Assembly (NCBI GenBank): GCA_024233865.1
Contig: JACKPA010000012.1
Location: forward strand, 128,001 to 192,000
Direction of reading: 5' to 3'
Length of the DNA stretch: 64,000 nt
From: Leptospiraceae bacterium
Lineage (GTDB): Bacteria > Spirochaetota > Leptospiria > Leptospirales > Leptospiraceae
The notes under the pieces are model-generated. The model saw only the letters and a program-made list of their open reading frames with translations. It was not told the origin of the DNA and searched no databases. A program made the position numbers and the translations under genes. Below, one piece after another: positions 1 to 18,167 of this stretch (the stretch's first letter is position 1; each line of letters opens with the position of its first letter).

Positions 1-2168
1 TTGCGAATGTCACTTAGTTCGTTTTCTATCTTTTTTAAAGTATTTCCGATAAGTAATCCTTCCGGTTTTTCCAAATGAACAAGTGTATTTGCTGCTACAA
101 AGTTTGTTTCCAAGTTTGGTAAAGGAACAATTCCATAGTTGTCTTTTTTGTCTTTATTTGCTTTTTGATCTATAATCAAAGAAATGAAAAATCGAAGTTT
201 GGAAATCTCAATGGCTATAGGCTGAATATCAACTCCATAAATACAGTTTTTGATTAAAAAGAGCTTTCTTCCATAGTCTTGGTAGTTGTTCTTTTCATTA
301 AAGGCTTCTTCAATTTCTTTTTTAACGTGTTTACGAATATTCACATCCGGAATTTTCTCTGCTTGATTCAATTGCAATCTTTTCCATTCTTCGTTTTTTG
401 GATCGAGTTTGTGAAGAACATAAACAAGCTTATGCAAAATTCCCATAGGAAAAGCACCGGATCCACAAGCAGGGTCTAAAATCTTAATTTTGTGTATGGC
501 TTGGATCAGATTTTGAGCTTCTTCTACTGTGAAAAAATGCTCTTCCGTTGAATGAGAAAGTAAATGACGAAGTTTGGAAACCCCACCCAAACCCTCCCCA
601 GAGGGGCAGGGGGTGAGGTATTCTTTAAAGTAAGCAATCAAACTTTCATCTACCATATAATTCACAATTTCTCGTGGAGTATAAAACGAACCAGTTTGTT
701 TGCGGGCTGTCGTTTTCGTTTCAGGGTTATAAGAAGCCAACAAATTTTCAAAAACCTTGCCTAATAATTCAGGATCAAGAGCGATCTCTTCTTCGAGTGG
801 TGTATTTTCGGTAACGGTGAATTTGTATTGTTTCAAGATACGAATGATTCCTTTCACCTTTTCTTTTTTATGCTTCGTGTCTCCGTATATTTTACTGAAA
901 TCTATTTCCCTCTCTTTACCAAAAAATAAGTCATCCGGAATATTAATTTGTTTTTGGGTTTTTGGATGATCGCTAAAACAATCTATACGAACTTCATTAG
1001 AGCCTTTTCCGGTTTCATCTTTACGTTTATCTAAACATTCAAACAAACCTCCGTTTAAAAAAGGTATTTCCCTAAAAATATTTAGTACGCTTTCGGAATC
1101 TTTGAATTCTTTCTCGTATCTGTATAGGCTATGTACCATATAATCTTTGTCTTTTACCTCAATTCCATTCGTAACACGAAACCTTCTTTCCAAATCCATT
1201 TCAGTATTTAAAGTAGCAAAAAATAGATTTTGTAAAATGGCTTTGTAATAAACAGTGGATGATCCTTCTTTTTCCATAAAATGGTTTAATGTCTTTTTCA
1301 AGAATTCTTCCCTAAACAAATCTTCCGATATAAATTCTCTACCACCTTCCAAACGCTTTTCTTTCAGAAACCAAACAAAAATAAGCCTTGTTAGCATACG
1401 AATTACGCTTAGTGAATTCCGAATGTCTCTATTTTCATGTACATCTTTTGGAAATTCTGCAATATCAATTGCCCAAAAATACCAATTCGATATGTCTTTG
1501 TAAAATCTCTTGTTTAACTCTTTGGTATCTAATACTTTCTGCCAAGCATTGTGAAAATCAACAAAGTTACTCAAACTGTATTTGGCTTTAATACAATCCA
1601 AAGATAAATCATACAGAATTTCAATGTGTCCTCTGTGTGGATTTTCAACTTGAATGTCTTTGATCAAAGTCACTTTTTCCAAAACGTCTTTGCTCACGTC
1701 TAGCTTGTTTGGTCTCCTATCAATAATTGCCAGAGTCAACACACTTCCATAACGAAAGAGTATCATAACCGGAGCCATAAAGAGTTTGTTTACGGCTCTT
1801 GTAATTTGAGATAACTTTGTTTTGGAATAAATATCTCCCTTCAATTGAATACCTATAAATATATAGGACTCATACTCATTGGGATTGTATTTTTTGTTTT
1901 CAAAAAGGGAATGACTTTCCAAAACTTCATCTTTGGTATATTGAAAGAGAATATTTGCTTCTTTCCACTCTCCAAAACAGGCTTTTTCTTCCGGAATATT
2001 CCTTTCTCTGAATAGTTCTTTAAAATCATTTTTTGTATAGTCTGATGTTTTATCGCTTTTGTAACCAAGAGTCTCAAAAAAACTCACCCCCAACCCCTCT
2101 CCAAAGGAGAGGGGAGAAGCGAGGAATTGTTTGATTTGTTCTTTTTTTTCTGTTTCAGTTGTTTTCAT
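1..2168 (-). CDS. Type IIG restriction-modification enzyme, copy 1 (N-terminal nuclease region plus N6-adenine methyltransferase domain). 5' partial-in-window: the start codon is at 2168 and the reading frame stays open to position 1, so the gene continues beyond the window
   Basis: Minus-strand translation from the ATG at 2166-2168 is uninterrupted to the window edge. It contains GSFYTPREIVNYMV (methyltransferase motif X) and ILDPACGSGAFP (motif I). It is the colinear in-frame version of the fragmented ORFs at 5225-7628. It is missing from the ORF track, probably because it has no in-window stop. Confidence 0.7.
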   Translation of the reverse strand, partial: MKTTETEKKEQIKQFLASPLSFGEGLGVSFFETLGYKSDKTSDYTKNDFKELFRERNIPEEKACFGEWKEANILFQYTKDEVLESHSLFENKKYNPNEYESYIFIGIQLKGDIYSKTKLSQITRAVNKLFMAPVMILFRYGSVLTLAIIDRRPNKLDVSKDVLEKVTLIKDIQVENPHRGHIEILYDLSLDCIKAKYSLSNFVDFHNAWQKVLDTKELNKRFYKDISNWYFWAIDIAEFPKDVHENRDIRNSLSVIRMLTRLIFVWFLKEKRLEGGREFISEDLFREEFLKKTLNHFMEKEGSSTVYYKAILQNLFFATLNTEMDLERRFRVTNGIEVKDKDYMVHSLYRYEKEFKDSESVLNIFREIPFLNGGLFECLDKRKDETGKGSNEVRIDCFSDHPKTQKQINIPDDLFFGKEREIDFSKIYGDTKHKKEKVKGIIRILKQYKFTVTENTPLEEEIALDPELLGKVFENLLASYNPETKTTARKQTGSFYTPREIVNYMVDESLIAYFKEYLTPCPSGEGLGGVSKLRHLLSHSTEEHFFTVEEAQNLIQAIHKIKILDPACGSGAFPMGILHKLVYVLHKLDPKNEEWKRLQLNQAEKIPDVNIRKHVKKEIEEAFNEKNNYQDYGRKLFLIKNCIYGVDIQPIAIEISKLRFFISLIIDQKANKDKKDNYGIVPLPNLETNFVAANTLVHLEKPEGLLIGNTLKKIENELSDIR

Positions 2169-2190
2169 ATTTATTTAAATGTCTTATTCT

Positions 2191-2511
2191 CTATGTCTCG
2201 ATAAAAATTTCTTCAGGCACCTGAGCTTGTAGAAATGGCCATATAAGTAGCCGAGCATAAGTTTTAGTGAAAGTAATGATTCTTTTCTCTTGTAACCATC
2301 TTTCATATTGCTCGTTATCCCACAAAACAGAATCCAATAAATGCCTTAATTTGTCTTTTCGGTTCAATTCCTTATTAGAGGAACCAATGATTGAATTTTC
2401 TTCAATAACCAGAATAACGTTATGGATACCTGGACGAAAAGAGAACGAATTTATTTTTAATATAACTGTTCCATCTTCTTGAATTTTAGCTGTTGTCTCT
2501 ATACTTTTCAT
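2191..2511 (-). CDS. hypothetical protein (106 aa)
   Basis: Single ORF. Its 3' end and downstream sequence (gayrtagagaataagacatttaa) are shared with the target-recognition-domain remnant at 3170-3180. Confidence 0.35.
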   Translation of the reverse strand: MKSIETTAKIQEDGTVILKINSFSFRPGIHNVILVIEENSIIGSSNKELNRKDKLRHLLDSVLWDNEQYERWLQEKRIITFTKTYARLLIWPFLQAQVPEEIFIET

Positions 2512-2567
2512 TGTTTACTCCTTAGCATTTACTCTATTTTAATTTCCCTTTTTCTATTTTGGAAATG

Positions 2568-2855
2568 TCAGCCAACAACTCCCTGAACCTGTCGAAGGAC
2601 TTTCTGCTCTTTTTTATTGAGTATTTCTTTATACAATACAACTGGATCCAAATCTACCTTATTGGGCCAACAAACAGTTCCTAATTCTTGATTTACTCTT
2701 ACTAGCTTAAAATAGTTCCATTCTTTTAATGGCTCAAAAACGCCTTCATAAGTGATCATTTTTTCTAAATTGATTACTCCAGTAATACCGTTTTCAAACT
2801 TCAAGTAAAGTAATGATTTTTTTCTTGGTTTTACATATACTATATCTACTAACAT
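2568..2855 (-). CDS. DUF2442-family protein
   Basis: The sequence ...LVDIVYVKPRKK...LKFENGITGVINL... is typical of the DUF2442 partner of DUF4160. The ATG at 2855 lies just downstream of the DUF4160 stop. The longer tracked ORF (to 2948) overlaps the upstream gene. Confidence 0.55.
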   Translation of the reverse strand: MLVDIVYVKPRKKSLLYLKFENGITGVINLEKMITYEGVFEPLKEWNYFKLVRVNQELGTVCWPNKVDLDPVVLYKEILNKKEQKVLRQVQGVVG

Positions 2856-2857
2856 TA

Positions 2858-3118
2858 TTACACCAACGGTTCTATATATTTTAACTCTTTCTTTTGTTTT
2901 GCAAATTCCCAATCTTCTTTTAACTCGTCTTGATGCAAAGATGCCCATTCAACAACAAGCCCTCTTACTCTAGAAGGTAGTTCACCTTCTAGAATTGTCA
3001 ATGTCTCAATAGATACCATAGCTTTATAATTTCCATATCTAACATGAAAATGTGGTGGGTTATGGTCGTTATGAAACATCGCGATAATTATACCTAAAAA
3101 CCTTGATATTTCTGGCAC
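2858..3118 (-). CDS. DUF4160-family protein
   Basis: MFHNDHNPPHFHVRYG is the hallmark of DUF4160. It sits in the classic gene pair with DUF2442. Confidence 0.65.
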   Translation of the reverse strand: MPEISRFLGIIIAMFHNDHNPPHFHVRYGNYKAMVSIETLTILEGELPSRVRGLVVEWASLHQDELKEDWEFAKQKKELKYIEPLV

Positions 3119-3169
3119 TATGATTTTTCTCCTTTTATTCTATCTTAAATGTCTTATTCTCTACATCTT

Positions 3170-3300
3170 GATAATAATTATGGATTGTCGTTTTTTCTAC
3201 AATGCTCATCCTTGGAAAGCTGTCCAATACTGTTAGCATCTCTTCTTCTGTAAGTACATACAGTTGGAAAACTATTGCGTCGATTTTTGGATAACAAATC
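3170..3300 (-). pseudogene. Remnant of the 3' end of a type IIG target-recognition domain
   Basis: About 120 nt match 4015-4135 closely (DAMVFHLYGLTEEEMLTVLDSFPRMSIVEKTTIHNYY...). There is no upstream ORF continuation. Confidence 0.5.
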
Positions 3301-3301
3301 A

Positions 3302-3721
3302 TCATAGGTATTTTATAAATATATTGTTTAATGCCATTCTTTTTTTAGTTCGATAAATATAATAATCAGAATCAATTGTAATGATATTCGTAATTCCATA
3401 AATTTCTGAAATTACAATTAAAGAACCATCTGCAATATCCATTGGTAAATCTTCGTATTTTTTTGCTAATTCGATTAACCTGTTATAATAGTCTTGTTTA
3501 AATTCTAGTATGTTTAGACCACCATCTAGTATAAAACTCATTAAATTAATTTGAGCCTTAGTCGATTTTCTTAATAGATGTCCAACTTCCGTAATTACAA
3601 AATTTGTAGTAAATAATTCACCACTGAAATTTTTTAGAAAATCTATGATATTTTCATGATACTTATCGCTAGCATCAAATAATGCATATAATGGTCCGGA
3701 ATCAATGAGAGTTCTTTTCAT
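3302..3721 (-). CDS. vapC: PIN-domain toxin (VapC-like)
   Basis: The MKRTLIDSGPLYALFD start, acidic PIN residues and 139-aa size fit VapC. The gene is 20-nt overlapped by an upstream small gene. Confidence 0.7.
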   Translation of the reverse strand: MKRTLIDSGPLYALFDASDKYHENIIDFLKNFSGELFTTNFVITEVGHLLRKSTKAQINLMSFILDGGLNILEFKQDYYNRLIELAKKYEDLPMDIADGSLIVISEIYGITNIITIDSDYYIYRTKKRMALNNIFIKYL

Positions 3722-3971
3722 ATAATATGTTCTCTAAGATTAGTTTTCTTTTTTGAGAAATGTCTTTTTTTCCACTTGAATAGACTCCAAAATATTTTTT
3801 TCCTATTTCATAAGGAGTTTTCTTATTCTTTTGATAGTAAGAATCAATATACCCTTTTAATACTATTTTAATAAGTTCTGATTCTGAAATATTTTCCTCT
3901 TTTGAAATTTTGAACAACCCTTCTTCAATTTCTTGAGTTAGATTTATGGTTAGTGCTTTTTGTCTGCTCAT
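3702..3971 (-). CDS. vapB: Ribbon-helix-helix antitoxin (VapB/CopG-like)
   Basis: The 89-aa protein has an N-terminal LTINLTQEIEEGL...SESELIKIVL ribbon-helix-helix pattern and lies immediately upstream of the PIN gene. Confidence 0.55.
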   Translation of the reverse strand: MSRQKALTINLTQEIEEGLFKISKEENISESELIKIVLKGYIDSYYQKNKKTPYEIGKKYFGVYSSGKKDISQKRKLILENILYEKNSH

Positions 3972-3976
3972 TTCAT

Positions 3977-6900
3977 TTATCCTACCTTAAAAGTTTTGTT
4001 TTGTATGCCTCGATAATAATTATGGATTGTCGTTTTTTCTACGATGCTCATTCTCGGAAAACTGTCCAAGACTGTTAGCATCTCTTCTTCTGTAAGTCCA
4101 TACAGATGGAACACCATTGCATCGATCTGTGCTTCCCATTTGGAGACCTCACCCCCGTCCCCTCTCCAATCTGGAGAGGGGGTTTGCTTTGCAACAAGTA
4201 TCTTGTCTACGAGTGCGATCAGGGGTTTTTGTAATCCTGGATTGTCGATTGGTGCTTTGGGAATTGGAAGTTTGTTTACATAATATTTATCAAAGTCCAT
4301 TGTTCGAATAGCACGACAAAAAACAAACCAGTAATAATACCAAGATGCAAATTTTGAATTTAAGATACCAAGGATATATTCTTCTTTAACACCTTTATTT
4401 GTAATAAATGTATTCATTACCGTATCCAATGTTAAAACTCCAATTTTTTATCTAAGCTTGCCATTATAATAATACTATCTTGTACGTGAGCAACTATTCT
4501 TTGAGAAATAATTTTAGTCTTTCTTTTTCTTAGTTCATCAACTTTGGAAATTAAGTCTGCTTTTGGTAATTTTTATCTTATCAATTTCACCATGAATATC
4601 ATATCTACCAATGTTTTTTCCTCGTAAAATATCTTCACCTTTGGTTGTTAATTTGCTTTGGTAAGGCAATCCTCTGCAAGTATTGGAGATTTCACCCAAA
4701 GGAATAAAGCAGTTTTTTAATTTTTTAATATGTTCAAAGATTTGGAATTAACGTAAATCGGTATTATATCATAAGCATTTATAAACTTATTATCTATTTG
4801 TTCATTATGAACTTTAATGGATTCATTCCAATAATCTCCAACGGTCATTTTATAAGATGCTTGTTTATCTTTGATTGTAACTATTATAACTTGTTCCAAA
4901 AGAACATTTTCAAACGCTTTGGTTGTATCAATTACAATACTGAGAACATTATCCTCTGCAATTAGATTACGAGTGTTTTTCCATCCTTCTGAAAATGCTA
5001 TAGACTTTGGAATAATATAACTCAAAATCCCTTTCCGTTTTAATGTTACCAAGCCAAATTCCATAAAAAAGGAAGCAGAATCTTTTTTTGTCTATCATAG
5101 AATTTATAAGATTTTTCGATATTTTTAAGATATTCTTTTAAATCAGCTCCATACGGCGGATTTCCTATCACAACATCAAAGCCACCTTTCCCCAGCCCCC
5201 CGTGAACGGGGGGAGTTACTTGCGTTAGTTACTCCCCAGCTCGGGGGAAGGGGGGGAAATCCCAAACATGTGTTCAGGGTCGAACCAATCCGCAGATTTG
5301 AGTCTATCATAAGGATTCCATTCGGCAATTTTGCTAGCTGAATCTTTAGAAAACTGATTTTTTAGAAGAAATTCAGAAATTTCTTTTGCGTTTCTCTTTA
5401 TCTTTCTCTCGCAGTTCTTTTTTTTCTCTTTATAAGTCCTTGCATCAAAGTGTTGTTTGCGAATGTCACTTAGTTGATTTTCCAACTTCTTTTTTAAAGT
5501 ATCACCAATTAACAAACCTTCCGGTTTTTCCAAATGAACAAGTGTATTTGCTGCTACAAAGTTTGTTTCCAAGTTTGGTAAAGGAACAATTCCATAGTTG
5601 TCTTTTTTGTCTTTATTTGCTTTTTGATCTATAATCAAAGAAATGAAAAATCGAAGTTTGGAAATCTCAATGGCTATAGGCTGAATATCAACTCCATAAA
5701 TACAGTTCTTGATTAAAAATAGCTTTCTACCATAATCTTGGTAGTTGTTCTTTTCATTAAAAGCTTCTTCAATTTCTTTTTTAACGTGTTTACGAATACT
5801 CACATCAGGAATTTTCTCTGCCTGATTCAATTGCAATCTTTTCCATTCTTCATTTTTTGGATCAAGTTTATGAAGAACATAAACAAGCTTATGCAAAATT
5901 CCCATAGGAAAAGCTCCAGATCCACAAGCAGGATCGAGTATCTTGATTTTGTGTATAGCTTGGATCAGATTTTGAACTTCTTCTACTGTGAAAAAATGCT
6001 CTTCCGCTGAATGAGAAAGTAAATGACGAAGTTTGGAAACCCCACCCAAACCCCTCCCAGAGGGGCAGGGGTGAGGTATTCTTTAAAGTAAGCAATCAAA
6101 CTTTCATCTACCATATAATTCACAATTTCTCGTGGAGTATAAAACGAACCAGTTTGTTTGCGGGCTGTCGTTTTCGTTTCAGGGTTATAAGAAGCCAACA
6201 AATTTTCAAAAACCTTGCCTAATAATTCAGGATCAAGAGCGATCTCTTCTTCGAGTGGTGTATTTTCTGTAACGGTGAATTTGTATTGTTTCAAGATACG
6301 AATGATTCCTTTCACCTTTTTTTTTTTATGCTTCGTGTCTCCGTATATTTTACTGAAATCTATTTCCCTCTCTTTACCAAAAAATAAGTCATCCGGAATA
6401 TTAATTTGTTTTTGGGTTTTGGATGATCGCTAAAACAATCTATACGAACTTCATTAGAGCCTTTTCCGGTTTCATCTTTACGTTTATCTAAACATTCAAA
6501 CAAACCTCCGTTTAAAAAAGGTATTTCCCTAAAAATATTTAGTACGCTTTCGGAATCTTTGAATTTTTCTCGTATCTGTATAGGCTATGTACCATATAAT
6601 CTTTGTCTTTTACCTCAATTCCATTCGTAACACGAAACCTTCTTTCCAAATCCATTTCAGTATTTAAAGTAGCAAAAATAGATTTTGTAAAATGGCTTTG
6701 TAATAAACAGTGGATGATCCTTCTTTTTTCCATAAAATGGTTTTAATGTCTTTTTCAAAATTCTTCCCTAAACAAATCTTCCGATATAAATTCTCTACCA
6801 CCTTCCAAACGCTTTTTTTCTTTCAGAAACCAAACAAAATAAGCCTTGTTAGCATACGAATTACGCTTAGTGAATTCTGAATGTCTCTATTTTCATGTAC

Positions 6901-7628
6901 ATCTTTTTGAAATTCTGCAATATCAATTGCCCAAAAATACCAATTCGATATGTCTTTGTAAAATCTCTTGTTTAACTCTCTTTGGTATCTAATACTTTCT
7001 GCCAAGCATTGTGAAAATCAACAAAGTTACTCAAACTGTATTTGGCTTTAATACAATCCAAAGATAAATCATACAGAATTTCAATGTGTCCTCTGTGTGG
7101 ATTTTCAACTTGAATGTCTTTGATCAAAGTCACTTTTTCCAAAACGTCTTTGCTCACGTCTAGCTTGTTTGGTCTCCTATCAATAATTGCCAGAGTCAAC
7201 ACACTTCCATAACGAAAGAGTATCATAACCGGAGCCATAAAGAGTTTGTTTACGGCTCTTGTAATTTGAGATAACTTTGTTTTGGAATAAATATCTCCCT
7301 TCAATTGAATACCTATAAATATATAGGACTCATACTCATTGGGATTGTATTTCTTGTTTTCAAAAAGGGAATGACTTTCCAAAACTTCATCTTTGGTATA
7401 TTGAAAGAGAATATTTGCTTCTTTCCACTCTCCAAAACAGGCTTTTTCTTCCGGAATATTCTTTTCTCTGAATAGTTCTTTAAAATCATTTTTTGTATAA
7501 TCGGGTGTTTTATCGCTTTTGTAACCAAGAGTCTCAAAAAACCTCACCCCCAACCCCTCTCCAAAGGAGAGGGGAGAAGCGAGGAATTGTTTGATTTGCT
7601 CTTTTTTTTCTGTTTCAGTTGTTTTCAT
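3977..7628 (-). pseudogene. Type IIG restriction-modification enzyme, copy 2, disrupted by multiple frameshifts. Fragments: 6972-7628 nuclease N-terminus; 6823-7005, 6539-6733, 5983-6315, 5225-6049 methyltransferase motifs X and I; 5100-5225 NPPY motif IV; 4717-5064; 3977-4429 TaqI_C-like target-recognition domain
   Basis: The fragments are colinear, on one strand and in shifting frames. Together they reconstruct one ~1200-aa protein: GSFYTPREI, DPACGSGAF, GNPPYGADLKEY, IIPKSIAFSEGW, GILNSKFASWYY. Frame breaks coincide with homopolymer or GC-hairpin tracts (e.g. T11 at ~6320, A8 at ~5085, G7 at ~5250). 5457-7628 is about 97% identical to 1-2168. Confidence 0.7.
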
Positions 7629-7878
7629 GTTTTTGTCTCAAAATCAATTTGCATTCTTGTGGCAAATTGTTATACAGTAAATTTAAATTATGTGTTTTGG
7701 AAAATGGGATATTTTGATAGATAAAAATTGACTTAATTGCTTTCTCGGTTGACTGTTGGCAGAGATAACATACATTTCTTGGGAATCGCTCCACCGTTTC
7801 GGAAAGTGCAATTGCACTATTCAAGTCTTCTTCGGCGTATTTAAGCCATGTTTTCCATTCCGGTATATTCTCGTTCAT
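7615..7878 (-). CDS. HEPN-domain protein (toxin-like partner of the nucleotidyltransferase)
   Basis: 87 aa with a ...STEKAIKS...KTHNLNLL... HEPN-like pattern. It overlaps the upstream nucleotidyltransferase gene by 38 nt. Confidence 0.55.
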   Translation of the reverse strand: MNENIPEWKTWLKYAEEDLNSAIALSETVERFPRNVCYLCQQSTEKAIKSIFIYQNIPFSKTHNLNLLYNNLPQECKLILRQKHENN

Positions 7879-8209
7879 ATATTAATTTACCCTCCTTTAA
7901 AGCATGATAATATATAGACCATTTCTTTTGTTTATATTTAGATTCTTCGTCTTGACTGATAACCAAAATATCAGTTGCTATAGGAAAGTTTTCTAATAAC
8001 TTCCGAATCTGAATAGCTAATTTCCTCCTATGCTCAACTTCTTTAAATTCTATTAGAATATCTAAATCACTATTTTCATTTTCCGTACCTTTGGCATAAG
8101 AGCCAAATATAAAGATTTTTTCCGGTTTGAATGTTGGAATGATTCTTTTTATTGTTTCATCCTTAAGATAACTGAATTCATATCTTGTTGTTTTGTTTTC
8201 TGCGATCAT
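7841..8209 (-). CDS. Minimal nucleotidyltransferase (MNT) domain protein
   Basis: IFIFGSYAKGTENENSDLDILIEF is the canonical GS...DxD nucleotidyltransferase motif. Confidence 0.7.
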   Translation of the reverse strand: MIAENKTTRYEFSYLKDETIKRIIPTFKPEKIFIFGSYAKGTENENSDLDILIEFKEVEHRRKLAIQIRKLLENFPIATDILVISQDEESKYKQKKWSIYYHALKEGKLIYEREYTGMENMA

Positions 8210-8249
8210 AGCATTCTCCTTTATTAATTATACCATACTTTTATCAAAA

Positions 8250-11200
8250 TCATTTTATAATCAACCAGGTTACAAGCTCAAAATCGTCTACATCTTTTAT
8301 TTGTTCCTTCTTAGATGGAAGGACAGAGTGCCTGCTTGTTGTTAGGGCTAACAGATTCTTTTTCTGAAAGACTCCTACCGTTTCTTCAATGGACTTCACA
8401 AGTAACTTATTGTAAAAATCCATATTTTTTCCGTTATCGGTTTCTTTATTAAATTGGTTACAAAGTTTTTCAATTGGAGATGTGATCCCAACACACAAAG
8501 CTCTATAGATGTCTAAAATCTGCTTGGCATGAGTAAACTTGTAACGAACATCTCCATTTTCTTGAACATAAACAAGATAAAACGGTTGTAAGGGATTCAC
8601 AGATTCAGAACTTGCAGTTCCTACTTTATGCCTTAAGCAAAATATAACTCCAGGAGATACAGTCTTATTTTGTTTATTTTCTATCTCAACTTCTTTTGGG
8701 ACAAGAGAATACAAACCAAAAGGAGTTTCCCTAAGCATTTTTTCATTGGATTGCAAATAGTTTAGTAAATCCACTCGAAAGTCATCCAAAGTAAACTCAC
8801 TAAAAGAAACGTTATCAGTCAAATCATCCAAATCCAGAATTTCTTTTTGTAGCCTCTTTAGCTGTTCATCTCTATAACTCAATTCATCACTTACCATATT
8901 TTCAATTTCTTCGACATTTAAAATATTTTCCTCATTTGTAGCAGTAATGTCTACCAATGCCATTCTAGCTTCCACTCTATGCTTTAACTTGATGTAATTG
9001 TCCAAATCTTCTGTGGGCCAGAAATTAACCAGGTGAACCGAATTATTTTTACTACCTAAACGATCAATCCTACCAAACCTTTGGATAATACGAACAGGAT
9101 TCCAATGAATATCATAATTTATCAGGTAATCACAGTCTTGGAGGTTTTGTCCTTCAGAAATACAATCTGTTGCAAATAGTACATCAATTTCTTCTATAGG
9201 CATTTTATCCAGTTTTTCACGATGTTTTGAAATGGGCGAAAAATTGATTAAAATTTCTTCATATCTAGAACTACCTAAAGTTGTTTTGTTTACACCACTC
9301 CCCAAAACCAAAGCCGTATGAACACCCAACTCTTTGTAAATATGATCTTTCAATTGCTCATAAATGTATATAGCCGTATCAGCATAAGCAGTAAATACTA
9401 AAACTTTTTTATTCGGCTTTCCATCATTATTTTTATTAGGATTTTTTATTTTTTCTGTTATCAAATCTTTCAATTTATGAAGTTTGGCATCTCTAATGGG
9501 AGTAATAGCTTCTGCCTGGTTATACAGAGAAACCAATTGCTCCCTGTCTTTTTCCAAATCTTGAAGCCATTCGTCTACTTTTAAGTCATCCAATTTATAC
9601 ACCAGTTTTTCTCCAATTTCAAATGCTTGTTTCAAATCTTCGTCTTCCATTTCTTCATTGGTTACTATTTCATCTGTTGCATAGCTTGTATTTTTATTAT
9701 CTCTAAATTTCTGATATTCTCTTATTTTATCTTCCAAGGTATCTATCTTTTTAATTGTTCTGTCCAGAGTGATTTTAAAAGAAAAAATAGAACTTTCTAT
9801 TCGTTTCATAAAGTTGGTTTTCATCATTCCTATCAAAAAATATTCCCTTTGACTTTGTGAAAAATTTTTCACCATTCTGGAAACCTTCGTCTCATAGAGC
9901 TGAATTTTCTCTTCTTTTAGATAAGCAAAAGGGTTAAACAAACTCAGTTTATACTTTGTAATTTCTTCATTTACTTTATCATAAGATACAAAGCGATTAT
10001 TCATATCAATCCTAGTTGTAACGGATATAGGTTTGGCTCTTTTTGGGAATTTACCAATTATTTCTAAACTTTCTTTATAATACCTTTCGATATGCTTTCT
10101 TGACCTTGCTATTGTTAATTGGTCTAGCATCTTAAAAAATGAGGATGGTAGTTTTTCCAAAAGTTCTAATGTTCTCCTTTCGGCATTTTTTTTGTGGTCT
10201 GCCCACATAGTAAAGACTTTTTGAGAAGTTATTAAAGTTTGGTTTATGCTTTGGATTCCAATTGTAAATAGATAAGCAGAATCATCTCCCGCAGTTATAA
10301 AGTAAATTTGATTTCTTAAATCTTGCAAGTGAACATTCACAGGAGTAGCAGACAAAAGTAATACCTTTGTTTTCCTTCCTTTTTGAATCACATCTTCCAT
10401 TAATTTTTCATAACGGCTTTTTTTGATTACATTTCCTTCTTCGTCTTTTTTTCCTTTGGTATTATTCCTAAAATTATGCGATTCGTCAATTACTACCAAA
10501 TCAAAGTTTTCCCAATTCAATGTCCTTAAATCAATATCTCCTTGCTTTCCGGAATCTCTGCCAAGATCGGTATGATTCAAAACCATATAACCAAATTTGT
10601 CTTCCAAAAAAGGATTCAATATAGAATTGTTAGCTGCCTGGTAAACTGTCCAATTGTCCCGTAGCTTTTTAGGACAAAGAACAAGAACACGATCATTTCT
10701 TAATTCGTAGTATTTTATAATTGCCAAGGCTTCAAAAGTTTTTCCCAAACCTACGCTATCGGCGATAATGCAACCGTTGTATTGTTCTATTTTATTAATG
10801 GCTGATTTTACACCATCCTTTTGGAATTCGTATAAGGATTTCCATATAAGAGAATCAAAGAAGTGGCTTTTTTCTTCTAATAACTCTAACTTACTTTTGT
10901 CTTGTAAGTATTTCTGAAAGATGTGATATAGAGTTTTGTAATAAATAAACTCAGGAGAATAATCCAAATACAGTTGCTTAAGATATTCAATTACTTCTTC
11001 TTTTACGTCCTCCACTTCCTCACTATTCCAAAGCTCATTAAACCAGCTAAGCAAATCCAATGTATCACGCTTGGAATCTATAATCAGATTAAGTTCAATA
11101 TTAGGATTAGAGCCAAATCCAATACCTCTATTTGTAAAATTGGAGCTACCCATTATAGCATGGGATAACCCACTTGGTTCATGAATATGATATAGTTTCC

Positions 11201-11582
11201 CATGCAGAAAATTACTTTTTTTAACGGATTTGATTTCTACTTTTTTAGCTATCCATTCCTCACAATCTCTTGCTATTTTACTTTGCTCTAGACGGTTGGA
11301 AAGAGATAAACCATGGTCTTCAATATCAAAAGATTTTTTATCAGTTTTGTCTGGGTCTAATGATTTGGTAAACCTGGGTTCTCCAAACAAAAATCTCAAT
11401 TCGGAAATGCTCTCAAGTCTATCTTTCAATTGATAATAGGCGTAAATTGTAAAAAAGGCGGAAACGAAAGATAATTTGGATTCTTCTACAATCGTTTTTT
11501 CTAAGAATTCCCCTACACTTCCATTTTTTCGATTATCCCTTATGTTAGAAAAACTGATATTTTGCTGGTTAAATTTTTGCAA
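8250..11582 (-). CDS. Phospholipase-D-family nuclease fused to an SNF2-family ATPase/helicase (1110 aa); putative defense protein
   Basis: The N-terminus HGKLYHIHEPSGLSHAIMGSSNFTNRG is an HxK...GSxN PLD motif. The SNF2 N-domain carries CIIADSVGLGKTFEALAII (Walker A) and DLVVIDESHNFRN (DEAH-like). Helicase_C carries LVFTAYADTA...FATDCISEGQNLQDCDYLINYDIHWNPVRIIQRFGRIDRLGS (motifs IV-VI). Confidence 0.8.
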   Translation of the reverse strand: MQKFNQQNISFSNIRDNRKNGSVGEFLEKTIVEESKLSFVSAFFTIYAYYQLKDRLESISELRFLFGEPRFTKSLDPDKTDKKSFDIEDHGLSLSNRLEQSKIARDCEEWIAKKVEIKSVKKSNFLHGKLYHIHEPSGLSHAIMGSSNFTNRGIGFGSNPNIELNLIIDSKRDTLDLLSWFNELWNSEEVEDVKEEVIEYLKQLYLDYSPEFIYYKTLYHIFQKYLQDKSKLELLEEKSHFFDSLIWKSLYEFQKDGVKSAINKIEQYNGCIIADSVGLGKTFEALAIIKYYELRNDRVLVLCPKKLRDNWTVYQAANNSILNPFLEDKFGYMVLNHTDLGRDSGKQGDIDLRTLNWENFDLVVIDESHNFRNNTKGKKDEEGNVIKKSRYEKLMEDVIQKGRKTKVLLLSATPVNVHLQDLRNQIYFITAGDDSAYLFTIGIQSINQTLITSQKVFTMWADHKKNAERRTLELLEKLPSSFFKMLDQLTIARSRKHIERYYKESLEIIGKFPKRAKPISVTTRIDMNNRFVSYDKVNEEITKYKLSLFNPFAYLKEEKIQLYETKVSRMVKNFSQSQREYFLIGMMKTNFMKRIESSIFSFKITLDRTIKKIDTLEDKIREYQKFRDNKNTSYATDEIVTNEEMEDEDLKQAFEIGEKLVYKLDDLKVDEWLQDLEKDREQLVSLYNQAEAITPIRDAKLHKLKDLITEKIKNPNKNNDGKPNKKVLVFTAYADTAIYIYEQLKDHIYKELGVHTALVLGSGVNKTTLGSSRYEEILINFSPISKHREKLDKMPIEEIDVLFATDCISEGQNLQDCDYLINYDIHWNPVRIIQRFGRIDRLGSKNNSVHLVNFWPTEDLDNYIKLKHRVEARMALVDITATNEENILNVEEIENMVSDELSYRDEQLKRLQKEILDLDDLTDNVSFSEFTLDDFRVDLLNYLQSNEKMLRETPFGLYSLVPKEVEIENKQNKTVSPGVIFCLRHKVGTASSESVNPLQPFYLVYVQENGDVRYKFTHAKQILDIYRALCVGITSPIEKLCNQFNKETDNGKNMDFYNKLLVKSIEETVGVFQKKNLLALTTSRHSVLPSKKEQIKDVDDFELVTWLIIK

Positions 11583-11669
11583 ACTAAGATCCTGTAAAAG
11601 TAGTATATATATATCTTTTTCGGGTTATTATTAAAGAAATATTAGTATTTTACACATTTCCGAAAAACA

Positions 11670-12329
11670 TCAAAATCTATACAATTCATCAGGAAATCCG
11701 GTAGAATCAAAGCATTTACTTTCCAGTAGGTTAAAAGAAACAACCGTAAAATGTGGTTTTAAGGCTTCCATATAGAAATGTAAAGGTCTTTGGTAGGCGT
11801 ACGGGTCGTTAAACCCAAGTTCTTTTTTCATGCGATCATAGTCCTTGTCGGTTGGAACTGAAAAATACAAATACTTTGTAATTCGAGAAAGTTTTTGAAA
11901 CATATTTTCTATATCTCTTCCTATGTATTGAAATACGGAATTACATATGGTGAAATCCAGTGGATTTTGTTCTATATTCAAAATAGTAAAGTCTTGGATT
12001 GAGGAGTGTATTATAGAAATATCCAAGCCACTAATCCACCTCGATTTGCTGAGTTTGTCTACCATTTCCCAGGAAGGCTCTATGGCATACACCTTATCCG
12101 GTTTTAGCAATTTCACAAAGTCTTCTAAAAGGTTTGCTTTTCCAAAACCAAAATCTGCCATAGAATACACCTCTATCTCACAAAGCGTAAATAGGGAAGC
12201 AATATAACGGGCGTGGTCTTTGGAATTATATGTTCCGTCAATGTCTATTTCATCTCGATAAACGGTTTTCCAGTATTTTTTATCAAAGGCAAGACCATTG
12301 GCAGCTGATGTAAGAACGGAATGTTTCAC
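11670..12329 (-). CDS. Class I SAM-dependent methyltransferase
   Basis: MADFGFGKANLL fits a glycine-rich SAM-binding motif I. The 4-nt overlap (ATGA) with the upstream membrane-protein gene suggests translational coupling. Confidence 0.55.
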   Translation of the reverse strand: MKHSVLTSAANGLAFDKKYWKTVYRDEIDIDGTYNSKDHARYIASLFTLCEIEVYSMADFGFGKANLLEDFVKLLKPDKVYAIEPSWEMVDKLSKSRWISGLDISIIHSSIQDFTILNIEQNPLDFTICNSVFQYIGRDIENMFQKLSRITKYLYFSVPTDKDYDRMKKELGFNDPYAYQRPLHFYMEALKPHFTVVSFNLLESKCFDSTGFPDELYRF

Positions 12330-13651
12330 ACTTCGTTTACAACAATAGATAGGGATATAATATCGGTCATAATTTTTTTCATTTTATCATAAGGTGTTGG
12401 CTGATAAAAGTCCTGAATGGATTTTAAAAGGTCTTCTTTTACAGCAGAATATTTGTCGCTATTGTAGATTCTTTGCATAAATTCTTTATTTACTAGTACG
12501 CTATTGGTATCTAATGAGATAAACAAGGTGTCTTTTGTTTTGAATCCTTTGTTGATCGAACTGGCTGTTTCTTGATTTAAGCCATTTACAATCAAAAAGT
12601 CATCTTTTTGCATTTCGGATATGTGGTTGAATTCAATCTTTTCTCCATAAAAAAAGTATACAATATCGCTAAAAGTTGCTGAGCCATAAACCTTTTGTTC
12701 AGGTTTCATAACTTTGGTTCGTAAGGAGGTGAGTAACCTGCCTTGTTGTATCATCTTTTCCGTATTCAAAGAACCTTTGTGGTTGTATGAAAAATAAACG
12801 GAAATTCCGATTAATACAATCACAACAAAAAGGGACTTGCGGTTTGTTAATTCTTTCTCCTTTTCCAGTAGAATATGCGTAAAAAGAATCAACAAAAAAA
12901 TCGGAACAAACTGAATTAAAATATTTCTTACCTTAATAAATAAAAATTGAAACGAATTGCTTCCAAAAAATTCAAAAGAACCTAGTACTACAATTAATGA
13001 GACCATAAAACCACCATAAGCCAATAAGACAGTTAAAGGAATGTTTTTCTTTTTATAAAATACTGTTATTCTGGTTTGTCTCATTTCTTTGATGCAATAT
13101 ACTGTGATGTAAACGGAAAATACGACTAAAAACATAACAAAATTCGACAAGAAGCCTAAGATGGTCAGTATACTCATTACAATCAAATCTATAAACGTTT
13201 CCAATCTGGAATAGATATAAAGAACTTGAATTATAATAAGACATAACAATTCACCGCTATATTGAAAGGGAAGGTTTACAGATAAAGGTGAAAATGCGAT
13301 TAAGTATAATAAAAAATAGTGATTTAGCTTCCAGATTTCCTTACGGAAAATTAACATACACAAATGTAAAAATACACTGTATAAAATAGAAAGATAGATT
13401 TTATAGGCTAAAAGATAATTCAAACCCGTTATATTTTTCCAATAATATGTAGTAATTGCCGGTAGAGGCTCTCCGTACCTTCGAGCTTGTCCTTCTTCCA
13501 TAATGGATTTTAAATTGGCGAGGTCAAAATACGCATTTGCGTGTCTTGGCTCTCCACGAAAATTGTATAAAGTACTCAAAACTACGCATAAAAACAATAT
13601 GGAAAGAATAATATTCAAAGGACTAACGGGTTGGCTTTTTTTATATATCAT
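12326..13651 (-). CDS. Polytopic integral membrane protein (~10 predicted TM helices), function unknown
   Basis: 441 aa dominated by hydrophobic helices, in an operon with the methyltransferase. Confidence 0.45.
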   Translation of the reverse strand: MIYKKSQPVSPLNIILSILFLCVVLSTLYNFRGEPRHANAYFDLANLKSIMEEGQARRYGEPLPAITTYYWKNITGLNYLLAYKIYLSILYSVFLHLCMLIFRKEIWKLNHYFLLYLIAFSPLSVNLPFQYSGELLCLIIIQVLYIYSRLETFIDLIVMSILTILGFLSNFVMFLVVFSVYITVYCIKEMRQTRITVFYKKKNIPLTVLLAYGGFMVSLIVVLGSFEFFGSNSFQFLFIKVRNILIQFVPIFLLILFTHILLEKEKELTNRKSLFVVIVLIGISVYFSYNHKGSLNTEKMIQQGRLLTSLRTKVMKPEQKVYGSATFSDIVYFFYGEKIEFNHISEMQKDDFLIVNGLNQETASSINKGFKTKDTLFISLDTNSVLVNKEFMQRIYNSDKYSAVKEDLLKSIQDFYQPTPYDKMKKIMTDIISLSIVVNEV

Positions 13652-13978
13652 ACTACCTATCCATAAAAACTACCTAATTTTATAGTGACATTCTTTTTGG
13701 TTATTTTTTTGTGTATAGTAAATTTATATGGATTATCAACTTATTTTAGGACTTGATGTTATCATTGAATCTTTTTTTCTAATATACCTCTTAATTCCAT
13801 GATTCTAAAGCCAATGCTTTGGAAAAAGAAAAATCCCTAAGTGTAACAACTTAGTTTTATCCTTTTTTGACTGAAGTAATCTTTTTTTCTCTACTAAAAA
13901 TAGTATCAATATGATAAATGCTTTAAACCATAAATATGTAAAAAAAAATAGGTTTATAAGGTGTTATTGGAGTATTGA

Positions 13979-15034
13979 ATGAAAAAGTGGAAAGTAGGTA
14001 TATTGGGTGCTACAGGTTCTGTTGGGCAAAGGTTTGTTCAATTGTTGGAAAACCATGAGTTTTTTGAAGTTACACATCTCGCAGCCTCAGACAAAAGCGC
14101 TGGAAATGTTTATGGTGATGTTATGGCTTCTAGATGGAAGGTTTCCAATAACATACCGGAATATGCAAAAAAAATTAAAGTTAGTAAATGCTCTCCTTCG
14201 GATACACCTGGGGTTAATCTCGTTTTTTCCGGTTTGGATAGCAGTATAGCCGGAGAAGTTGAGACGGAATACGCAAAAGCAGGGATTATGGTTATTTCCA
14301 ATTCCAAAAATCATCGAAATGATACGGATGTACCGATTCTTTCTGCGGAAGTAAATCCGGGGCATTTGGAAATTTTAAACTACCAAGCAACACCGGGTAA
14401 AATTATTACAAATTCAAACTGTACAATTATGGGAGTTACAATCACCCTTAAACCGATTTTTGAAAAATTTGGAATTGAATCCGTTGTTTTATTTTCGATG
14501 CAAGCTATTTCTGGAGCCGGTTATCCTGGGGTTCCCTCGTTAGATATTTTAGGAAATGTTGTTCCTCACATAGGCGGAGAAGAGGAAAAAGCTGAATTTG
14601 AACCTCTAAAATGCCTTGGAAAATTGGAAAACGGTCAAATTGTGCCGGCTGATTTTAAAATATCAGCTCATTGCAACAGGGTACCTGTTATAGACGGTCA
14701 TACTGTTTGTGTATCAATAAAACTAAAAAAACAAGCCACAATAGAAGAAATCAAAAAGGTGTGGAATGAGTTTGAAGGTGAACCACAAAAACTAAAGTTA
14801 CCTTCTGCTCCTGCAAAAGTGATAGATTATAGAGAAGAAATAGACAGACCACAACCAAGGCTTGATTTAATGAGTGGAAATGGAATGGCTACCACAGTTG
14901 GTAGATTACGAAAAGATACTGTATTGGATTTTAAATACGTGCTCTTAAGCCACAATACTATTCGGGGGGCGGCTGGAGCAGCAATCCTAAATGCTGAATT
15001 GATTTACAAAAAAGGATTAAATAAGGCAGGATAA
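13979..15034 (+). CDS. asd: Aspartate-semialdehyde dehydrogenase
   Basis: [14 protein letters not shown] Rossmann motif, active-site region [14 protein letters not shown], 351 aa. Confidence 0.8.
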
Positions 15035-15039
15035 AGAAA

Positions 15040-16995
15040 TTGACAGAAGCCAATAAACAAGTCGTACAGGTAACGGATTATGCACAGGCTTTACAATCAG
15101 TGCAAGGTCTAGAGTCTAGAGGGGATTTTCAATTCAGAGGTGTTCATAAATTTTTCATGACAATTCATGAATGGACGGAGAAATACTCAACAAACAAAAC
15201 TCTTCCTACGGTTGAGCAGCTCATGAAAAATGTGGGGTTAGAAAAAGAGCAAGTAGACCTTTTTGTGAATGAAATATGTATTAAAAGAAACCCACCTCTT
15301 ATCAAAAAAATATCTACCATTGAGTACGTTCCCAATTCATCAGCAAAATCCGAAATATTGTCGAATTTATTGAAACCTATAACAGTATTTGCAAGACCAA
15401 CCGTTATTGATGCAGGTTCGGCACATCGGTATGTACTGGGTTGTAATGAATCATCAGCAGAGGCAATAAAAAATTGTATAAAAAATAATCGAGTTCCTTA
15501 CAAAGGGGACAAATTTCGAGATTTAATATTTTCAAAAATTAATTCCAATAAATTAAGTGATACCTATGCTTCTGCGGATATTGGAAATTTGTTTACTTGT
15601 CCCTACAATACAACCAAAGATCTTAAGCAAGAAACGATCAATATGCATTTGAAACCAGTATTAAAAAAGCTAATCGAAGATAAAACACTTTTGTTTTTTC
15701 GGAATGAAAACGCTTCCAAATCCGGTAATAAGTCGATATTTCTATACAATAATAAAGAAGAAATCGTTGAAAGAGTTGATATATACTTGCAGTATTTGAA
15801 AAAGAATATCGTCCCTTTACTTCAAAGGATTGGAGTTATATCCCAAATTTCAGAAGAGGAATATGCCGAGTTCAATACTCTAGCGGAAACTCTTCTAACC
15901 TATATGGATGAATCGTATGCCGATCAAAGGACAATGGTTGGAGAGTTGATTGTTTTGTATAAATTCTATGAGCAATTTACTGAAGATTCTGTTAAAAAGA
16001 ACGTTCGAGAAAAGTTAAACGAAGTATTGAGTTTATTGGAAAATGCCGGAAAAATGGTTGACATATCTGCCATTCGGATCAATGGAGAGCCACTTCCTCA
16101 AGAGATTGTGCCTCTTTTGATTTCCAATGAAAATATTTTACATGCTGAGTATGATGATAACAGGAATTATTATGAATTCATTCTCCATAAAAAGTGTGTA
16201 AAACAAGCAATTGCCCAAGCCAAGAAAGTCTATAATTCTACCGGTGTTGATACGGATGTTAGAATTTTAAATAAAATGAATGTTATGAAGCTCTTGGATA
16301 AGGACGAGCAAAAAGAGTTTATCGGTGTGGAATCTGAAAGTTTGTTTAAATACCTACCTTTTTTGGTAAGGATGTGGAGACGATTATTCGGAAATATTTT
16401 TGTAACAAAAGAAGAAGCCCAAGCCATTCGCGTTCAATTGGAAATGGAGCAAAAAAAGAGGATTATCGAATCCAAGCAGAAGGTTATTGAAAAAGAAAAG
16501 TCAAAACTTGCTGAGGAAAGAATCAAACGAAAAGAAACAACGGAAAAAGTGGAAAAAGAAGAAGCTATTTCCATGAGTAGCGAAAGCGGGGAAGGTATCA
16601 ACTTTGATGATGAAAAAGAGGTCAGAAACGTTCAGCAAAAAATAGCAACTATTCTTGATTACGCTTGGGATTCTAAAATACTGCCCGATAGGGAATATCT
16701 TTTGGAAAATTTAGGGAATTTGATGACCGAAAATCAACTGATATTTTTCCTTAAAAAGTTTTCGCAAAAAGATATTTTATCTTTTCAGATTAAATCAAAA
16801 TCGAATAACGTTACAAAATACAAATGGCCTATTTTGGTTAGCAGAAGTTACCTAAAAAGAAATGGGCAAAAATTATTGGATAACGCTAAAAAGCAAACTG
16901 ACGAGCAAAGGAAATCTCTAATGCCTGACCAGGATAAGTTTGATGTTTATAATTCCATAGAGGATTTTTTGAATAAAATTATTTATAAAATATAA
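15040..16995 (+). CDS. Hypothetical protein (651 aa) with a Lys/Glu-rich coiled-coil segment
   Basis: Long ORF with normal codon usage and no recognisable catalytic motif. A KE-rich heptad region lies at ~aa 470-520. Confidence 0.45.
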   Translation: MTEANKQVVQVTDYAQALQSVQGLESRGDFQFRGVHKFFMTIHEWTEKYSTNKTLPTVEQLMKNVGLEKEQVDLFVNEICIKRNPPLIKKISTIEYVPNSSAKSEILSNLLKPITVFARPTVIDAGSAHRYVLGCNESSAEAIKNCIKNNRVPYKGDKFRDLIFSKINSNKLSDTYASADIGNLFTCPYNTTKDLKQETINMHLKPVLKKLIEDKTLLFFRNENASKSGNKSIFLYNNKEEIVERVDIYLQYLKKNIVPLLQRIGVISQISEEEYAEFNTLAETLLTYMDESYADQRTMVGELIVLYKFYEQFTEDSVKKNVREKLNEVLSLLENAGKMVDISAIRINGEPLPQEIVPLLISNENILHAEYDDNRNYYEFILHKKCVKQAIAQAKKVYNSTGVDTDVRILNKMNVMKLLDKDEQKEFIGVESESLFKYLPFLVRMWRRLFGNIFVTKEEAQAIRVQLEMEQKKRIIESKQKVIEKEKSKLAEERIKRKETTEKVEKEEAISMSSESGEGINFDDEKEVRNVQQKIATILDYAWDSKILPDREYLLENLGNLMTENQLIFFLKKFSQKDILSFQIKSKSNNVTKYKWPILVSRSYLKRNGQKLLDNAKKQTDEQRKSLMPDQDKFDVYNSIEDFLNKIIYKI

Positions 16996-17002
16996 AACCT
17001 GA

Positions 17003-18166: not shown

Positions 18167-18167
18167 C

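Follow-up and report, generated by a model that had tools for sequence, protein, structure and literature searches.

How does a fragment of a restriction-modification (RM) gene come to lie on its own between two copies of that gene? The question arises in a Leptospiraceae bacterium MAG, of which a 64-kb stretch of DNA (the window, 34% G+C) was analyzed; exact protein look-ups agree with the organism name. All genes relevant to the answer lie on the minus strand, in the order RM copy 2 (RM2), tail C, a VapB-like/VapC pair, tail B, the DUF4160, DUF2442 and ORF106 genes, tail A, and RM copy 1 (RM1). "Tail" denotes the 3' end of the RM gene and its repeats. The features are as follows.

11582..8250, minus strand: PLD-SNF2 helicase, with Pfam matches to PLDc_2, SNF2 and Helicase_C and a PADLOC match to 'HKD+Snf2' (1.6e-121).
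8209..7615, minus strand: nucleotidyltransferase/HEPN pair, between the helicase and RM copy 2.
7615..7878, minus strand: HEPN ORF, matching only positions 2-68 of a 117-position profile.
7628..3977, minus strand: RM copy 2, containing body, variable region, linker and tail C.
5151..7628, minus strand: conserved part (body) of RM copy 2; identity to copy 1 is 96-100%, and ~11 indels, most of them in homopolymers, shift the frame.
4283..5150, minus strand: variable region of RM copy 2, which follows the NPPY motif and includes TRD-2; frameshift-broken and unalignable with the copy-1-type target-recognition domain (TRD) in scaffold L019.
4132..4282, minus strand: linker from the TRD to tail C (LPIPKAP...LVDKILVAKQ), ~85% shared with the copy-1 gene.
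3976..4131, minus strand: tail C, the intact 3' end of RM copy 2, with the last helix and a lineage-specific extension; reference copy of the repeat.
3702..3971, minus strand: putative antitoxin in the VapB position, without a Pfam match; its start is 6 nt after the tail C stop.
3302..3721, minus strand: VapC toxin with a PIN domain; its stop is ~10 nt before the start of the tail B homology.
3134..3289, minus strand: tail B, an orphan copy of the last 50 codons and stop of the RM gene.
3135-3305, minus strand: 56-codon ORF holding tail B; its start (ATGATG) and the stop codon of VapC overlap (ATGA).
2858..3118, minus strand: DUF4160 gene (Pfam), first gene of the second cassette.
2568..2855, minus strand: DUF2442 gene, 95 aa as called on metagenome contigs.
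2191..2511, minus strand: ORF106.
2175..2209, minus strand: tail A, a 35-nt third copy corresponding to the last 12 codons and stop in the tail frame.
1..2168, minus strand: first 722 codons of RM copy 1, uninterrupted; the remainder lies beyond the window start.

The 3' end of copy 1 lies outside the window and is known only from a scaffold of a second Leptospiraceae MAG (L019), which contains a 100-N gap and is possibly partly chimeric.

Judged from its domains and motifs, the parent gene is a predicted helicase-linked Type IIG-like N6-adenine methyltransferase of the Eco57I/TaqI_C family, ~1,200 aa in length. Copy 1 matches N6_Mtase, Eco57I and MmeI_Mtase in Pfam and REase_MTase_IIG in PADLOC (4.5e-46), the GNPPY motif is present in both RM copy 2 and L019, and the TaqI_C TRD, the LVDKILAAKQ linker and the EIDxxVYxLYGLTxEEI helix are all found in the gene. 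The protein family is very large, with its closest database members only 57% identical, and its members are normally encoded right after a PLD-SNF2 helicase, a pairing that recurs in the relatives. A single scan of genome contigs returned relatives at only 46-54% identity and no close Leptospiraceae locus. Independent support for the copy 2 frameshifts was not obtained from look-ups of a 115-aa fragment and of the HEPN ORF, which gave nothing. The N-terminal part of L019, which switches from copy-2-type to copy-1-type SNPs, is uninformative on these frameshifts.

The original prediction took the orphan fragment for a piece of a TRD. This assignment has to be revised, since, in the C-terminal ORF of 150 residues, the Pfam TaqI_C match spans residues 5-56 and the fragment corresponds to residues 101-150. 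After the TaqI_C TRD come a linker, interrupted in RM copy 2 by a GC-rich hairpin insertion at 4146-4185, a helix (QIDAMVFHLYGLTEEE) and the lineage-specific extension. An alignment of 40 family members has the constant end LVDKILAAKQ-loop-EIDxxVYxLYGLTxEEIxIVE. From this alignment, the tail B fragment is identified as the predicted conserved C-terminal helix (the tail) that follows a TaqI_C-type TRD and linker. Tail B comprises helix and extension only, and neither B nor A contains TRD sequence; tail B is therefore unable to serve as a silent specificity cassette. A search of solved structures by sequence gave weak BseCI and CamA matches for the end of the TRD and nothing for the tail.

A repeat search aligned 3134-3289 with 3976-4131 over 156 nt, of which 133 are identical (85%), on the same strand and 842 nt apart. 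The repeat of the copy 2 3' end, first proposed for 3170-3290, is thus real and slightly longer than described. In minus-strand translation, the tail B ORF (3135-3305) ends in KIDAIVFQLYVLTEEEMLTVLDSFPRMSIVEKTTIHNYYQDVENKTFKIE before its stop codon, and the C-terminal end of RM copy 2 reads QIDAMVFHLYGLTEEEMLTVLDSFPRMSIVEKTTIHNYYRGIQNKTFKVG. The same string had also been placed at the end of the ORF at 2191-2511, and indeed tail A (2175-2209) is identical to tail B at 31/35 positions and to tail C at 28/35. Read in the tail frame, tail A encodes NFYRDIENKTFK followed by a stop, a sequence that falls between those of B and C; the RM copy 1 ATG follows 2 nt after the end of tail A. ORF106 reads tail A out of frame, which together with its readability in the tail frame indicates a copy of the tail end at the DNA level. 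Because the homologues of ORF106 are 80-86 aa long, its last ~25 codons appear to be read-through into junction DNA and tail A.

The similarity between tails B and C has the structure of a coding sequence. Their 23 nucleotide differences over 153 nt fall on codon positions 1, 2 and 3 in the ratio 4/4/15, and at least 15 third-position differences would arise by chance with p=0.0017. Across the central 28 codons (12-39), five changes are synonymous and none is non-synonymous. This points to homology at the coding level and not to AT-rich low complexity, the alternative against which the original prediction was to be checked; a 30-nt degenerate motif of the tail likewise matches only the tail sites in the 64-kb window, with 0 matches expected by chance from shuffled sequences. 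The synonymous bias further suggests that tail B derives from a once-functional allele that diverged under protein-coding selection, as opposed to a fresh copy that drifted. The databases searched yielded no donor gene whose tail is of the B or A type: among 5.8 billion proteins, the query for a B-type tail returned only the orphan ORF itself, and an exact search of JGI metagenomes with a tail 23-mer gave 0 matches. The tail B ORF (P0121) is called identically in five independent contigs.

The three tails are right-aligned on the stop codon, with lengths of >300, 156 and 35 nt. The farther a copy lies from RM copy 2, the shorter it is, and divergence is greater in the outer copies. Tails C and B (156 nt) flank 686 nt that hold the VapB-like/VapC pair; tails B and A (35 nt) flank ~935 nt. 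This arrangement leaves little of the dedicated junction motif that had been suggested, as the shared 35 nt are the plain overlap of three right-aligned remnants. The site also lacks the attributes of a special junction: structure, an excess of promoters or terminators, another copy in the window, and a nearby recombinase. Single-stranded DNA folds of the three motifs were no better than those of shuffled sequences (z of -0.40, +0.98 and +1.15), and promoter and terminator signals at the tail motif occurred at chance level only. Rfam gave no matches in the window or in contigs L001 and L005. Domain searches detected no transposase or integrase between the tail repeats and no integron integrase among the ORFs, and no recombinase gene was found within ~10 kb on either side, a search that covered the window ORFs from 1 to 18,656 and the 6 kb of L019 downstream of the copy-1-type gene. 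Sites of the dif/Xer or attC kind were also considered and set aside, as neither inspection by eye nor folding gave a convincing palindrome.

The arrangement recurs elsewhere in the species. The region between the RM copies is found at 99-100% identity in the second Leptospiraceae MAG and in short contigs of at least eight other samples, and the two longest contigs, L001 and L002, each extend from tail C as far as the RM copy 1 start. Contigs that independently cover the whole arrangement rule out misassembly, while short contigs could still include assembly-graph chimeras at the repeats. In L019, the helicase, the nucleotidyltransferase (MNT), HEPN and RM genes are followed by the 100-N gap and then by an RM part whose identity is 97.2% with copy 1 and 93.9% with copy 2. 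Its TRD has no similarity to the copy 2 TRD of the window, and its tail (C') differs from tail C at 4/153 nt. Downstream of C' lie VapB codons 1-18. A GTTG microhomology connects them to what is left of a DUF4160 gene, its last three codons, and to a DUF2442 copy with 82.6% identity. This decayed series implies that the copy-1 unit once had the same cassette order downstream. It supports a scenario in which the whole 5.46-kb unit (RM gene, tail and cassettes) would have been tandemly duplicated, after which one cassette set decayed. An inverted 20-mer of the ORF106 3' region is also found downstream of the copy-1-type gene in L019.

Comparison of related strains, which had been suggested as a way to look for alternative TRD or cargo arrangements, delivered the decayed cassettes of L019 and the mosaic tails described below; the 14 species contigs contain no cassette-less or cassette-swapped variant, except for 23 nt at the start of L009. 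An empty-site allele with a single tail and no cassette was not found in the 14 species contigs, the second MAG and two metagenome scans.

The tail itself is a place where RM alleles recombine. The two RM genes join unalignable TRDs (TRD-1 and TRD-2) to tails that are 97% identical. The RM copies lie 5,456-5,460 nt apart, and their bodies are a mosaic of segments with 100% and 94-96% identity. Contig L004 has copy-2-type SNPs at the copy-1 position, and together with the mosaic bodies this points to gene conversion between the copies. In L001 and L002, contigs from two samples, the change from copy-1-type to copy-2-type sequence occurs at different places in the linker and tail. The L001 switch lies in the interval from column 152 to column 163 of the alignment, and the shared stretch there (~10 nt) is not long enough to yield a de Bruijn-graph chimera. 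In addition, L009 carries a hybrid C/B tail with C-type codons 23-29 and B-type sequence from codon 40, its crossover lying inside a 31-nt identical run. Different TRDs on near-identical tails, together with these mosaic contigs, identify the tail as a recombination zone and the TRD as the exchanged unit, in line with the proposal that a conserved 3' sequence is used to exchange specificity. Allelic substitution of TRDs has already been described for Type IIG genes (PMC2853133).

A total of 53 distant loci were surveyed, 45 retrieved via the tail peptide and eight via the N-terminal body. At least two strict tail motifs occur in 13 of the 53, a preliminary figure from a survey biased toward multi-tail loci, and in 12 of these the motifs are in direct orientation with orphans (<100 open codons upstream). 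With reversed sequences as a control, the number of motif matches was 0, against 63 in the real sequences. The strict scan missed L032, in which the orphan tail is direct but frameshifted. Of the eight loci retrieved via the N-terminal body, L073 has a direct orphan, and L014 has a silent cassette in inverted orientation together with a resolvase. The metagenome scan with the tail peptide found no close relative, only relatives at 37-57% identity. The genes lying between tails are defense or toxin-antitoxin (TA) genes: AbiJ-like, DUF5131 with a partner, XRE/ImmA, DarT-DarG, a YoeB pair, HipA-like, AAA_13, a HicB pair, ABC-3C components, a YhcG/DUF1016 nuclease and a ParE pair. Loci L024 and L033 share their downstream cassettes and differ in the first one (AbiJ-like versus DarTG). 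A unit of orphan tail, ParDE and the 5' part of a tail is 84% conserved between L027/L030 and L073. Tail copies therefore bracket cassettes both here and in distant relatives, as the idea of cargo insertion between copies would have it.

The edges of the orphans are regular as well. Their left boundaries fall into two clusters, one before the ILAAKQ block and one within ~5 nt of the helix I-D codons; tail B of the window belongs to the second group, and in 5/7 junctions examined the boundary is at most 10 nt from the preceding cargo stop codon. That orphans in unrelated lineages share two tail positions, often at most 10 nt from a cargo stop, speaks against random illegitimate joins. On sequence grounds, these regularities appear to fit compact tail-plus-cargo cassettes better than such joins, and the clustering could be a pointer to a site-specific process.

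Taken together, tails B and A are probably non-functional scars of cargo that recombined into the conserved 3' tail of the methyltransferase gene, an explanation that upholds the recombination scar envisaged by the original prediction. The order of events and the route of recombination that we infer would be as follows. The DUF4160/DUF2442/ORF106 cargo would have recombined into the 3' end of the gene first, and the VapB-like/VapC pair second. In each event, the gene would have kept or received a complete tail, and the other tail copy would have been left downstream of the cargo. The outcome would be cassettes bracketed by direct tail repeats in the series C, VapBC, B, DUF4160-DUF2442-ORF106, A, that is, an insertion with long target duplication. 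The crossover would presumably proceed through the sequence homology of the tail itself, because the tail is conserved while the upstream TRD varies. This could happen along two routes: a circular tail-plus-cargo molecule might integrate by a single crossover, with excision between tails able to regenerate the circle, or one-ended, homology-anchored recombination might replace the 3' end and displace the old tail downstream. The whole 5.46-kb unit would later have been duplicated in tandem, with the RM bodies kept alike by gene conversion and the TRDs differing. Weighing against this explanation are the searches for an empty-site allele and for a donor of a B-type or A-type tail, which found neither, the intact and identical tail B ORF, and the clustering of orphan boundaries at two tail positions. 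Once in place, TA cargo between 85%-identical direct repeats may resist loss, as cells that delete it would be poisoned; the same resistance has been proposed, and is unconfirmed, for the tvr locus (PMC6265443).

Several other explanations were weighed against cargo recombined into the tail. One holds that tails B and A are deletion remnants of extra tandem RM genes, three or four paralogues each with its own TA pair, of which the last 50 and 12 codons were left. The gene is prone to tandem duplication (two copies 5,456-5,460 nt apart), tail A lies 2 nt before the RM start as if RM genes once abutted, tail B diverged under coding constraint, and an internal deletion at a microhomology is seen downstream of the copy-1-type gene. 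Nevertheless, we consider this origin unlikely, since it needs two independent deletions that each run almost exactly from the end of a cargo gene to within the tail, and fails to explain why orphans share their starts at two tail positions after cargo stops. Moreover, recombination between the near-identical RM bodies would be expected to remove the cassettes too. A programmed, recombinase-driven cassette system of the tvr or integron type, in which the tails are sites for tail-plus-cargo circles and the recombinase is encoded elsewhere, appears quite unlikely. Recombinase genes are absent within ~10 kb on either side in both the window and L019, the repeats are only 85% identical and unequal (156 versus 35 nt) with a shared core that is ordinary coding homology, an attC-type hairpin is absent, and so is the motif in the remainder of the 64-kb window. 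Cassette-less or swapped variants are also missing from the 14 species contigs, bar the 23 nt of L009. These points outweigh the resemblance to tvr, where a TA pair sits between direct repeats at the 3' end of a specificity gene (PMC6265443), the orphan boundaries at two positions across several phyla with tight cargo junctions, and the 84% conservation between genomes of the unit formed by an orphan tail, ParDE and the 5' part of a tail. The hybrid C/B tail of L009 is what C-by-B recombination would produce, and the relative L014 combines a serine recombinase with an inverted silent TRD-plus-tail cassette, so recombinases do act on the family tail.

It is improbable that tail B is functional, whether as a vapC-coupled 56-codon ORF that supplies a free C-terminal helix modulating the RM enzyme or as DNA carrying expression signals for the cassette. 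The reading frame is uninterrupted and its start overlaps the vapC stop in an ATGA, five contigs carry an identical ORF, its divergence from C is biased toward synonymous changes, and orphan tails of other lineages are often still open reading frames. However, with 99-100% identity throughout the species contigs, conservation is uninformative on selection, and the synonymous bias is equally expected from divergence within a full gene. Frameshifts or interruptions occur in some orphans of other loci (L032 and orphan 2 of L024), tail A is just 12 codons long and read out of frame, and promoter- and terminator-like sites occur at chance level. An artifact, either a chance AT-rich similarity or a misassembled repeat region, is so improbable that we reject it. 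The window has 34% G+C and the homopolymer indels of RM copy 2 resemble long-read consensus errors, but the 133/156 match has a codon-position structure, the motif gave 0 matches in shuffled sequences, and short-read assemblies made independently in several studies include single contigs (L001 and L002) that reach from tail C to RM1.

Among known systems, the closest parallel to cargo recombined into the tail is insertion with long target duplication, which is documented for RM loci in many phyla, its mechanism being unknown (Nobusato/Furuta/Kobayashi; PMC2853133). There, as here, a gene block without a mobility gene lies between direct repeats of >30 bp that copy the target and overlap the 3' end of a resident gene; our locus combines direct repeats of >30 bp with a short insert (<20 kb) and no mobility genes. 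In contrast to the published cases, in which the RM genes are the insert, the RM 3' end is the target here and the TA pairs are the insert. The repeats are also 85-89% identical here and near-identical there, and no uninserted allele is available here for comparison. A second parallel is offered by the orphan arrays of Rhs, CDI and T6SS effector-immunity loci, which have been attributed to homology-facilitated illegitimate recombination (PMC5361080). These share with our locus a constant 5' body, a variable 3' part, and serial 3' remnants and small genes pushed downstream, and in them the newest element adjoins the gene. The corresponding features here are bodies with 96-100% identity, unalignable TRDs, and tails C, B and A in series. 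Those orphans keep the variable toxin tip and its cognate immunity gene. In B and A, by contrast, nothing but the constant tail is left, and the genes beside them are autonomous TA pairs instead of partners of the RM gene.

The pneumococcal tvr (SpnIV) Type I locus also has direct repeats at hsdS 3' ends that bracket a TA-like pair, and its circles excised through the repeats can reintegrate (PMC6265443). However, tvr encodes the recombinase tvrR and the window has no recombinase. Moreover, the downstream repeat of tvr carries alternative TRDs that shuffle specificity, whereas tail B lacks a TRD: its homology starts at the last helix, ~10 nt after the vapC stop, which is not the composition of a silent TRD cassette. 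Unrelated TRDs between conserved flanks are likewise known from allelic TRD substitution and domain movement in Type IIG and Type I systems (PMC2853133; PMC3077401); the exchange described there involves neither leftover 3' fragments nor trapped cargo. Shufflons and invertons resemble our locus in having extra partial 3' copies of a specificity gene downstream of the expressed gene, and the family relative L014 has such a system. They differ in needing inverted repeats, a silent TRD and an invertase, whereas the copies in the window are direct and come without TRD or recombinase. Integron attC sites are not matched either, as the motif does not fold and no integrase was seen.

The boundary and cassette regularities of the distant loci lead us to a broader, tentative idea that goes beyond the scars in this window. 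The family tail (LVDKILAAKQ...EIDxxVYxLYGLTxEEI) might be a general landing pad, through which tail-plus-cargo cassettes with defense or TA genes integrate and excise without a recombinase of their own, restore the host gene and leave the old tail downstream, so that arrays would grow defense islands outward from an RM gene. A likeness is offered by tRNA-targeting islands, in that they restore the host gene and leave the old copy downstream. If this idea is true, the series C-VapBC-B-DUF4160/DUF2442-A would be one such array. The tail-cargo-tail pattern is found in at least six other lineages, and a single mechanism behind all of them would make the protein-constrained 3' end of a defense gene a portable homology for capturing and exchanging defense genes. 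Variation of RM systems by TRD exchange and the clustering of defense genes are well known. To our knowledge, the arrival of small defense or TA modules without recombinases beside RM genes is mostly unexplained. As a single locus, the result is a modest one, and the recurrence of the tail-cargo-tail architecture raises its interest. The locus can be read as a record in which three nested tails would date successive events, with different TRDs on near-identical tails in the two RM copies and crossovers inside the tail in population contigs. Should it hold only accumulated scars, it would still be a clean example of RM-locus turnover, without further consequence.

At the opposite edge of the RM unit, the HEPN ORF ends at the start codon of RM copy 2, a position that appears to mark another rearrangement junction.

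A short contig of the same species from another sample, L009, carries a hybrid version of the 3' tail of the restriction-modification (RM) gene. The evidence comes from its positions 1-23, equivalent to window positions 3223-3201: the tail is of the tail C type (the 3' end of RM copy 2) at codons 23-29 and of the tail B type (the orphan copy) from codon 40. A crossover between tails C and B that deleted VapBC would be expected to leave such a hybrid. With just 23 nt at a contig end to go by, the hybrid tail may instead be an assembly-graph artifact. A second short contig, L005 (one sample), departs from the window within vapC (window position 3450), and its positions 1-98 are GC-richer; neither the window nor Rfam contains a match to these 98 nt, which could represent a chimera or sequence inserted into vapC.

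Among distant loci with relatives of the RM gene, contigs of one population (L027, 681-727 versus 2329-2375; L026; L028) show a block consisting of an orphan tail, ParDE, and a tail placed both ahead of and behind the same flanking sequence. The two placements imply either a putative direct duplication of approximately 1.65 kb or a circular or tandem form.

A different arrangement is found in a Planctomycetaceae metagenome-assembled genome (MAG; L014, JAISLW010000246.1), where a silent cassette and a recombinase gene lie downstream of an RM gene relative with 46% identity:

10440-13221, inverted, silent TaqI_C target-recognition domain (TRD) plus tail cassette, with a serine recombinase

The recombinase contains a Resolvase domain (1.7e-34), and inverted repeats are present at 10440-11261 and 11553-12458. 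The helicase-linked methyltransferase family thus seems to include an arrangement resembling a specificity switch that works by inversion.

At the opposite end of the RM unit, the HEPN ORF of an MNT/HEPN pair (window 7615-7878) covers only profile positions 2 to 68 of 117 and ends at the start codon of RM copy 2. The likeness of the two RM units likewise starts no more than a few nucleotides from the ATG. Together, these observations define a sharp left edge of the RM unit, adjoining a truncated gene. The junction between the helicase and RM genes also takes inserts: in the distant locus L073 (6565-8004), a SLFN_AlbA_2/HATPase_c_4 gene, and in the window (7615-8209), the MNT/HEPN pair.

Within the window, GC-rich hairpin-forming elements of 35 to 85 nt (G+C content of 70% or more, versus 34% for the window) are confined to the two RM copies, which are encoded on the minus strand:

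580-621, RM copy 1
2085-2125, RM copy 1
4146-4185, RM copy 2
5180-5264, RM copy 2
6039-6076, RM copy 2
7545-7585, RM copy 2

They are in-frame insertions relative to homologues, adding, for example, 24 residues immediately ahead of GNPPY. At one of these loops, homologues belonging to other phyla have similar PSP..GEG.GG inserts. The element at 4146-4185 lies approximately 15 nt from the point where the homology between tails B and C stops. In the high-GC relatives L033 (5616-6194 and 10243-10760) and L024, the RM tail is separated from the first cassette by REP-like repeats, translating as ...SVLECGRPLPL.RRAAAASK.PEDWRSPKAPAPS..., and by very short tail-end pieces (GLTAAEIKIVEEG..*). These repeats and pieces recall the GC-rich element adjoining the tail in the window.

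RM copy 2 (3977-7628) shows approximately 11 frameshifting indels compared to copy 1, almost all at homopolymers or short repeats and concentrated at 6420-6981, where substitutions are nearly lacking. More disruptions are present in the TRD-2 region unique to this copy (4430-5225). In the 9.6 kb upstream, no indel was found by comparison with an independent assembly. These disruptions either make RM copy 2 a true pseudogene or reflect repeat-associated consensus errors.

In the copy 1-type unit of the second Leptospiraceae MAG (L019), 20 nt of the ORF106 3' region recur in inverted orientation downstream of a decayed DUF2442 copy (13730-13749 versus window 2218-2237; 19/20 identical).
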